From: Escherichia coli
GTDB taxonomy: Bacteria; Pseudomonadota; Gammaproteobacteria; Enterobacterales; Enterobacteriaceae
Reading direction: 5' to 3' (one strand)
Length of the DNA: 64,000 nt
Assembly: GCF_050920415.1 (NCBI RefSeq)
Contig: NZ_CP169309.1
Below, piece after piece: positions 62,329 through 64,000 of this stretch (its first letter is position 1; each line of letters opens with the position of its first letter). The translations under genes were made by a program, and so were the position numbers. Under the pieces are notes generated by a model. The model saw only the letters and a program-made list of their open reading frames with translations. It made no database searches and was not told the DNA's origin.

Positions 62329-63315
62329 TCAACCACCTGCTTTCATTACCCATTCAGAGATAAATTTATTACCCGGTACTGGCGGAGAGTACAAATAGCC
62401 CTGCAAAAAGTGAACGCCTTTGCCGATCATTAAATCCGCCTGCTCCTGGGTTTCTACCCCTTCCGCCACGATACTCAGACCAGGCTTACGCGCCAGTTCG
62501 ACAATATTGTCCACAATATGACCGGAAATTTCGTCGACACTCGCCATTTGCACAAACGACTTGTCAATTTTAATAAAATCGACCGGAAACGCCTGCAAAT
62601 AACGATAGGTCGCATAACCCGTACCAAAGTCATCCAGCGCAAAGGTAATGTTGTGCTGATGAAGGCTGTCAAATATCGCTCTGGCTTCTGGCGTTACCGG
62701 AATGGGGTTGCGTTCCGTTAGCTCAAGAACCAGCTTGATTTTATCGTTACCTAATTTCTTGACCAGGTTCAGACACTCTTTTTCAAATCCTGCGGCCAAA
62801 AAACATCCTGCCGAGACGTTGATGCCAATATGGAAATTATCCGGCAGCAAATGTTTTACTGGCATCAGAATATCCGCAGTCTGTTTCATCAGCTGGCGAG
62901 TCATTATGACAATAAGACCGGATGACTCCGCCAGAGGAATAAACTGATCCGGTGGGATAATTCCCGTTTGCGGATGTTCCCAGCGAACAAGCACTTCACA
63001 GCCCGTCAGTACCCCTGTCTGCGCGCAGAAAACGGGCTGGATCCACGGTTTGAATTCGTGATTTTCCAACGCCAGACTGATGGCTTCAGGCGTGACGATA
63101 TGGTGACAACGGTTATCAGGAATATAAAAATTATTTTTATTTCCCTTGCCACTGATGACTTGCGGATGATATTGAAAAAAGATATCCCGCCAGAAAGTAA
63201 TATCACTCTGGATGCCTAATTTTTCATACAACTGCTTCTTCTGATGTGAAATTGTCTTTGCGCTACGATTTCTGTATTGTGATATTTCTGTAACCGACAT
63301 TCCCTCCATTAGTAG
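62329..63315 (-). pseudogene. pdeL: c-di-GMP phosphodiesterase PdeL (YahA), 5' end interrupted by IS2 inside the LuxR-type HTH
   Basis: Reverse-strand frame encodes ...LLMEGMSVTEISQYRNRSAKTISHQKK... plus a complete EAL domain; codons upstream of LLM are IS2 left-end sequence; the open frame runs into IS2 up to 63447. Confidence 0.8.
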
Positions 63316-63403
63316 ACTGGCCCCCTGAATCTCCAGACAACCAGTATCACTTAAATAAGTGATAGTCTTAATACTAGTTTTTAGACTAGTCATTGGAGAA
63401 CAG

Positions 63404-63769
63404 ATGATTGATGTCTTAGGGCCGGAGAAACGCAGACGGCGTACCACACAGGAAAAGATCGCAATTGTTCAGCAGAGCTTTGAACCGGGGATGACGGTCT
63501 CCCTCGTTGCCCGGCAACATGGTGTAGCAGCCAGCCAGTTATTTCTCTGGCGTAAGCAATACCAGGAAGGAAGTCTTACTGCTGTCGCCGCCGGAGAACA
63601 GGTTGTTCCTGCCTCTGAACTTGCTGCCGCCATGAAGCAGATTAAAGAACTCCAGCGCCTGCTCGGCAAGAAAACGATGGAAAATGAACTCCTCAAAGAA
63701 GCCGTTGAATATGGACGGGCAAAAAAGTGGATAGCGCACGCGCCCTTATTGCCCGGGGATGGGGAGTAA
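63404..63769 (+). CDS. insC: IS2 OrfA (InsC) HTH protein
   Basis: 121 aa from ATG 63404 with GGAG upstream ([41 protein letters not shown]...). Confidence 0.92.
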
Positions 63770-64000
63770 GCTTAGTCAGCCGTTGTCTCCGGGTGTCGCG
63801 TGCGCAGTTGCACGTCATTCTCAGACGAACCGATGACTGGATGGATGGCCGCCGCAGTCGTCACACTGATGATACGGATGTGCTTCTCCGTATACACCAT
63901 GTTATCGGAGAGCTGCCCACGTATGGTTATCGTCGGGTATGGGCGCTGCTTCGCAGACAGGCAGAACTTGATGGTATGCCTGCGATCAATGCCAAACGTG
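63727..64000 (+). CDS. insD: IS2 OrfB (InsD) transposase, 5' portion, reached by -1 frameshift; truncated by window end
   Basis: The -1 frame from 63727 reads [91 protein letters not shown] with no stop before window end. Confidence 0.6.

Follow-up and report, generated by a model that had tools for sequence, protein, structure and literature searches.

The PdeL (YahA) protein of Escherichia coli K-12 converts graded c-di-GMP into two discrete states, acts with Cra to activate its own gene while counteracting H-NS, and affects biofilm and motility decisions as well as the sensitivity to phage N4 (bioRxiv 10.1101/2021.10.01.462762; PMC8669472). Its EAL domain has been crystallised alone (PDB 4KIE, 4LJ3, 4LYK). 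The insertion sequence IS2 is known to activate ampC, acrEF and neoR by means of hybrid promoters (Jaurin and Normark 1983, summarised in PMC9330008). The documented outward -35 hexamer of IS2 is located in the right inverted repeat (IRR) and points outward through the right end; combined with a -10 of the left end after IS2 circularisation it forms the junction promoter, and combined with flanking DNA it forms the hybrid promoters (PMC9330008, PMC12095673). Polar, Rho-sensitive insertions of IS2 in gal are also documented, as indicated by a title cited in PMC12095673.

In the window, i.e. the whole stretch of 64,000 nucleotides that was analysed, IS2 interrupts pdeL. As in gal::IS2, the same element interrupts a gene, its exact terminus stands on the target and downstream expression is expected to be silenced; the window differs by its target, codon 35/36 of pdeL, where the insertion is absent from the searched genomes, and by a remnant that is read outward from the left end. 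The genes activated by IS2 hybrid promoters share with the window the presence of the same element 5' of a coding sequence, but there the outward -35 belongs to the IRR and the gene lies beyond the right end, whereas in the window the left end is turned to the gene and there is no adequate -35/-10 pair. The insertions of OV2, of ST1193-like genomes and of FJ_Ec_21 involve the same element, with the left inverted repeat (IRL) turned to pdeL in the same small chromosomal region; they are however located 93 or ~365 bp upstream of the gene, in a K-12-type locus without ehaA, and not inside the coding sequence as in the window. Finally, the crystallised EAL constructs and the product that the window could encode are both N-terminally shortened and retain the whole catalytic domain, but the former are engineered and start at about residues 97-101, whereas the hypothetical product of the window would begin at residue 37 and retain, in addition, three helices of a crippled DNA-binding domain.

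The model we propose is that IS2 has transposed recently, in one strain, into codon 35/36 of an ehaA-linked pdeL allele, and that codons 36-362 have thereby been severed from the promoter, the ribosome-binding site, the start codon and the first 35 codons of the gene. We estimate at about 75% the probability that the remnant is a null, loss-of-function allele, best annotated as a pseudogene.

The junction between IS2 and pdeL

The gene order yahG-yahF(fdrA)-yahE-yahD-yahC-yahB-pdeL is the same in the window, in MG1655 and in E. coli MFDS1022581 (NZ_CP169399.1), a food isolate from Korea whose intact 362-aa pdeL adjoins ehaA, and the pdeL remnant of the window adjoins yahB, on the betT/ehaA side, as expected for the pdeL locus. 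MFDS1022581 was taken as the reference; K-12 pdeL is a poor reference for the junction, its N-terminal third being different from that of the window allele. Positions 1-63312 of the window are collinear with MFDS1022581, with 2 substitutions in 63.3 kb (both found over 1-39472, the segment 39000-63312 giving a single 24,313-nt alignment at 100% identity) and with IS2 as the sole structural difference. Since these substitutions and this single difference are all that separates the two strains over that length, the insertion is recent and strain-specific.

The alignment to the intact MFDS1022581 allele places the last native base of pdeL at 63312 and the first nucleotide of the IS2 left end at 63313. 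At the breakpoint, the native allele reads ...CTCCATTAG followed by CAGCTTGAG, whereas the window reads ...CTCCATTAG followed by TAGACTGG, the latter being the first bases of IS2. Native pdeL DNA resumes at codon 36 and the insertion is thus situated at codon 35/36. The remnant (62329..63312, minus strand), made of codons 36-362 and the stop codon, is 100% identical to the intact MFDS1022581 allele and contains the last three helices (2-4) of the LuxR/GerE domain, then the linker and the EAL domain in full; the sequence is otherwise unchanged (1025/1025 identical to MFDS1022581). Codons 1-35, with the start codon, the ribosome-binding site and the promoter, have been displaced by IS2, and none of these expression signals of pdeL is contiguous with the coding sequence in the window. 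Between the remnant and its own 5' part lie at least 688 bp of IS2, presumably the entire element of 1,331 bp.

The DNA lying beyond the junction (63313..64000, plus strand) corresponds to the first 688 of the 1331 bp of IS2 and runs into the window end. All 688 bp (688/688) agree with annotated, active-type IS2 copies, which many E. coli genomes list as 'IS3-like element IS2 family transposase', and the 30-nt left terminus TAGACTGGCCCCCTGAATCTCCAGACAACC has one exact match in the window, at 63313-63342, for 0 expected by chance. The imperfect IRL (63313..63354, plus strand) extends over ~42 bp, as judged by comparing the two terminal repeats of a complete IS2. It is followed by orfA (insC; 63404..63769, plus strand), which codes for the 121-aa transposition repressor TnpA and matches NCBIfam NF006928 'IS2 repressor TnpA' over positions 1-121 of 121 with 276.4 bits, for a cut-off of 229. 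The heptamer A-AAA-AAG (A6G), read from the sequence at 63721..63727 (plus strand), would be the site of the programmed -1 frameshift from orfA into orfB, and RefSeq labels the same element 'programmed frameshift'. The beginning of orfB (insD, the catalytic part of the transposase; 63727..64000, plus strand) is open in the -1 frame, its translation giving 91 codons without a stop up to the window end, beyond which the catalytic region falls. The IRL is thus placed against the 3' portion of pdeL, and the transposase genes are oriented away from this portion. Compared with the copy of the K-12 strain OV2, the IS2 of the window displays 2 differences, a G instead of A at position 32 of the element and a C instead of A at position 606, i.e. 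window positions 63344 and 63918, the first being inside the left repeat. Many chromosomes and plasmids carry the variant of the window at 100% identity.

The insertion leaves a fusion ORF (62329..63447, minus strand, 372 aa, GTG start in the ORF list), whose 5' end consists of 45 IS2-derived codons (63313..63447, minus strand) antisense to the IS2 left end and to the first codons of orfA. A BLASTP comparison with intact PdeL gives 44 IS2-coded residues followed by a 328/328 identity to PdeL residues 35-362: the codon abutting the junction on the IS2 side, CTA, codes for Leu, and residue Leu35 is restored by chance. In the survey of in-frame starts, the antisense IS2 frame stays open for 52 codons before a TGA (63469-63471) closes it. 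The fusion ORF would be an accidental by-product of this open antisense frame in the IS2 end. The earlier note, made from the letters of the DNA, had described an IS2 in the 5' end of pdeL, the loss of the native N-terminus and an IS-fused frame with 44 IS2 codons. This structural reading is confirmed by the exact junction at 63312/63313, upstream of which the DNA is IS2 and not native pdeL, and by the open frame, whereas its statements on the helix-turn-helix and on an IS2 promoter had to be revised (see below).

The 5 bases adjoining the IS2 left end, ATTAG (63308..63312), are the presumed target site, as deduced from the position of the junction. Assuming a simple transposition, a second copy of ATTAG would be expected at the IS2 right end, where the junction would read ...GGGGCAAATCCA, ATTAG, CAGCTTGAGTAAAAGCCGTTC, with ATTAG and then CAGCTTGAGTAAAAGCC.... 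This expectation of a 5-bp duplication is based on the complete IS2 copies present elsewhere at the pdeL locus, which measure 1,331 bp and are bordered by GCGAT (L002) or AGCGA (L003). The right end of the window's IS2 and its target duplication lie outside the window, which would also be compatible with an IS2-mediated deletion or inversion involving another IS2, an arrangement in which neither the 5' fragment of pdeL nor ehaA, nor perhaps betT, would adjoin the right end; layouts with several copies do occur here, FJ_Ec_21 having two IS2-type copies that flank yahC-yahB-pdeL. However, the window is collinear with MFDS1022581 up to the junction, a single IS2 end is present within 64 kb, and each complete copy examined at this locus proved to be a simple insertion flanked by a 5-bp duplication. 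Such a rearrangement appears to us quite improbable, and its consequence for pdeL is the same as that of a simple insertion.

An error of assembly, in which a mis-join at the IS2 repeat would conceal an intact pdeL, also deserves to be considered: IS2 is multi-copy in most E. coli genomes (median of 3 places per genome) and repeats can cause mis-joins. Nevertheless, mis-joins fall inside the shared repeat, and not at the terminal nucleotide of an element within a single-copy gene, so that we give hardly any credit to an artefact. The position of the junction, the identity of both partners, their orientation and the recency of the event are all established.

Domains lost and kept in the pdeL remnant

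In intact PdeL, the Pfam GerE (LuxR-type) domain extends over residues 26-72 (model positions 4-50, 29.5 bits) and the Pfam EAL domain over residues 112-346. In the fusion ORF, the GerE match is reduced to model positions 12-50 (19.8 bits), whereas the EAL match (PF00563, model positions 3-236 of 236, E = 2.8e-61) is the same as in the intact protein; the remnant combines an incomplete GerE domain and a complete EAL domain, the integrity of the latter being in line with the earlier reading. The AlphaFold2 model of intact PdeL, obtained from the single sequence with a mean pLDDT of 46, is a weak guide to helix boundaries only. In this low-confidence model the predicted helices cover residues 27-37, 42-50, 53-66 and 72-83, i.e. 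the four-helix pattern of GerE, and the breakpoint is found inside helix 1 (27-37).

The truncation thus removes helix 1 of the LuxR/GerE domain and preserves the helix-turn-helix proper, with its two helices, together with the whole EAL domain. It was previously proposed that the start of the LuxR-type helix-turn-helix had been lost; this holds for the N-terminus and helix 1, but the helix-turn-helix itself is not hit and residue K60 is kept in the remnant. The substitution K60A abolishes DNA binding in K-12 PdeL (bioRxiv 10.1101/2021.10.01.462762). The three-helix GerE remnant would nevertheless be unlikely to fold or to bind DNA normally. In the case of the catalytic moiety, the isolated PdeL EAL domain is catalytically competent.

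Possible transcription and translation of the remnant

The integrity of the EAL domain, which folds and dimerises alone according to published evidence, raises the question of a deregulated, N-terminally truncated PdeL that would be transcribed from an outward promoter or by read-through, translated from Met37, and active as a phosphodiesterase without feedback. The evidence bearing on this alternative, which we consider unlikely, concerns first the transcription. In the window, pdeL adjoins the left end of IS2, and its direction of transcription diverges from that of the transposase. The IRR mechanism described above cannot act on the remnant because pdeL faces the left end, whereas the outward -35 of a hybrid promoter, paired with a flanking -10 at 16-18 bp, serves a gene downstream of the IRR. 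A consensus scan of 63100-63700 for σ70-like promoters on the minus strand, with a threshold of 9/12, gave no match at or above this value. The best relaxed outward match, TTAAGA-17 nt-GATACT, reaches 8/12 and ends at 63343; it would initiate transcription inside the IRL, but it is below the threshold of the scan, at a level common by chance, and the documented outward element of IS2 is at the other end. Two candidate explanations were rejected on these grounds, namely the IS2 hybrid promoter, the documented -35 being in the IRR while pdeL faces the left end, and a strong promoter directed outward from the left end of the element. The appeal previously made to an outward or hybrid IS2 promoter driving pdeL is therefore not retained.

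Read-through from the native pdeL promoter would need to cross ~1.3 kb of untranslated antisense IS2. An untranslated antisense transcript offers the conditions for Rho termination. Transcription is the limiting, unsupported step for the expression of the remnant.

The K-12 model may not be applicable to the native promoter of this allele, although the loss of PdeL autoregulation suggested in the earlier note derives from K-12. In the ehaA-linked locus of MFDS1022581, a spacer of 141 bp with a hairpin lies between the end of the autotransporter gene ehaA, upstream, and pdeL, and the comparison of this locus (L004:7131-7330) with that of K-12 (L001:6140-6371) reveals no homology in the upstream DNA apart from ~14 nt around the ribosome-binding site. 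In K-12, the Cra and PdeL boxes sit in a regulatory region that has no homologue upstream of the window-type pdeL. The Cra/PdeL-box promoter model was dropped for the window allele because the upstream DNA is non-homologous, and the Cra/PdeL-box/H-NS control known in K-12 may fail for the widespread ehaA-linked allele as a whole. The divergence extends into the coding sequence, the first ~110 codons of the ehaA-linked pdeL being a divergent allele with respect to K-12, and the only RefSeq name given to this allele is 'EAL domain-containing protein'.

The translation signals are the second aspect. The full fusion ORF is unlikely to be translated, neither the GTG at 63447 nor the ATG at 63393 being preceded by a Shine-Dalgarno match (duplex energies of +0.3 and +1.5 kcal/mol). 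On the other hand, the tip of IS2 contains a Shine-Dalgarno-like run, AGGGGG (63321..63326, minus strand, a computed match only), ~10 nt upstream of the in-frame ATG 63309-63307 that corresponds to the native Met37. The predicted duplex energy of this site with the anti-Shine-Dalgarno sequence is -9.4 kcal/mol, vs -3.9 kcal/mol for the native pdeL start; its 10-nt spacing exceeds the optimum. The next ATG, at 63300 (Met40), has a GGAGGG at only 1 nt, which is too close. The idea of a fusion start, already put forward in the earlier note, is favoured by this predicted G-run before Met37 and judged unlikely for the two starts located within IS2. Given an mRNA, the translation of a PdeL protein without residues 1-36 would be feasible, although the loss of helix 1 may cause the GerE domain to misfold and the protein to become unstable. 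In the outward direction, this strong Shine-Dalgarno-like AGGGGG lies ~8 nt inside the boundary of the element, and any IS2 whose left end lands a few bases upstream of an ATG would provide it with a ribosome-binding site.

The Shine-Dalgarno-like AGGGGG and the promoter-like match taken together make a low-level production of PdeL without residues 1-36 conceivable. In the null allele that we favour, the remnant would not be expressed at a useful level, and the c-di-GMP phosphodiesterase activity and the DNA-binding and feedback function of PdeL would both be lost. The expected phenotype would be the loss of the PdeL-dependent low-c-di-GMP state, which, by reference to K-12, would affect the bistable switch behind the motile or sessile decision and phage N4 sensitivity.

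IS2 and pdeL in other genomes

The junction of the window was searched for in several collections. No single-piece match was obtained for a 600-nt query spanning the junction in 5,426 complete E. coli genomes, and the exact 38-nt junction is absent from the GTDB representative genomes and from the JGI metagenomes. No exact-product match was found for the fusion ORF products of 372, 354, 326 and 323 aa that correspond to the alternative starts, nor for the predicted 95-aa fusion of the pdeL 5' fragment. The exact sequence of the neighbour protein YahB occurs in more than 28,000 blocks of the collection, and the insertion is present in none of the 10 neighbourhoods listed. This pdeL::IS2 allele is a new instance of a known element, in a known gene, by a known mode of disruption.

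Other IS2 copies are nonetheless located near pdeL. In the K-12 strain OV2, the element (L002:3494-4824) has its left end to pdeL, 93 bp from the ATG, and in EcPF40 (L003:3498-4828) it has the same orientation at a site offset by 1 bp, the respective duplications being those given above. In the swine strain FJ_Ec_21 (L018:3361-4589), the left end is again turned to pdeL, at ~365 bp upstream. The 362-aa coding sequence of pdeL is intact in these three strains. Among the 5,426 complete E. coli genomes, 68 have IS2-like sequence as near to the pdeL 5' end as OV2 and EcPF40; in the other ST1193-like genomes, the geometry of the matches is the same as in EcPF40, in which the junctions were checked.

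At least four independent IS2 insertions, those of OV2, the ST1193-like genomes, FJ_Ec_21 and the window, are therefore grouped within ~470 bp, all with the left end to pdeL. This pattern may reflect a regional target preference of IS2 or a selection on pdeL regulation. The independent copies that show the same end to an intact pdeL count in favour of a truncated PdeL made in the window, because such a pattern would be expected if the left end tolerated or promoted pdeL expression. A bolder proposal would be that the 5' side of pdeL is a recurrent, orientation-specific IS2 target that lineages of E. coli exploit, or are selected for, to rewire the bistable c-di-GMP switch of PdeL, the left end supplying a weak outward promoter and the Shine-Dalgarno-like G-run, and that the window allele expresses a feedback-blind PdeL without residues 1-36; we hold this for a long shot.

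The window strain and MFDS1022581 constitute a natural, near-isogenic pdeL::IS2/pdeL+ pair over 63 kb, which is convenient for testing the role of PdeL in a wild, ehaA-carrying background; for the rest, the event belongs to routine IS-mediated gene disruption.

With the 1,025 bp of the pdeL 3' part as the query, 267 of the 5,426 complete genomes have no match and 77 are covered at less than 80%, while ten matches are plasmid-borne. The loss or truncation of pdeL is not rare among complete E. coli genomes, because of these 267 and 77 cases, and plasmid copies of the gene exist. Finally, in FJ_Ec_21 a second IS3-family (IS2-like) copy (L018:1-751) truncates the 5' end of yahC, which measures 447 bp vs 498 bp, and the two IS copies placed around yahC-yahB-pdeL in this strain form a potential composite unit.
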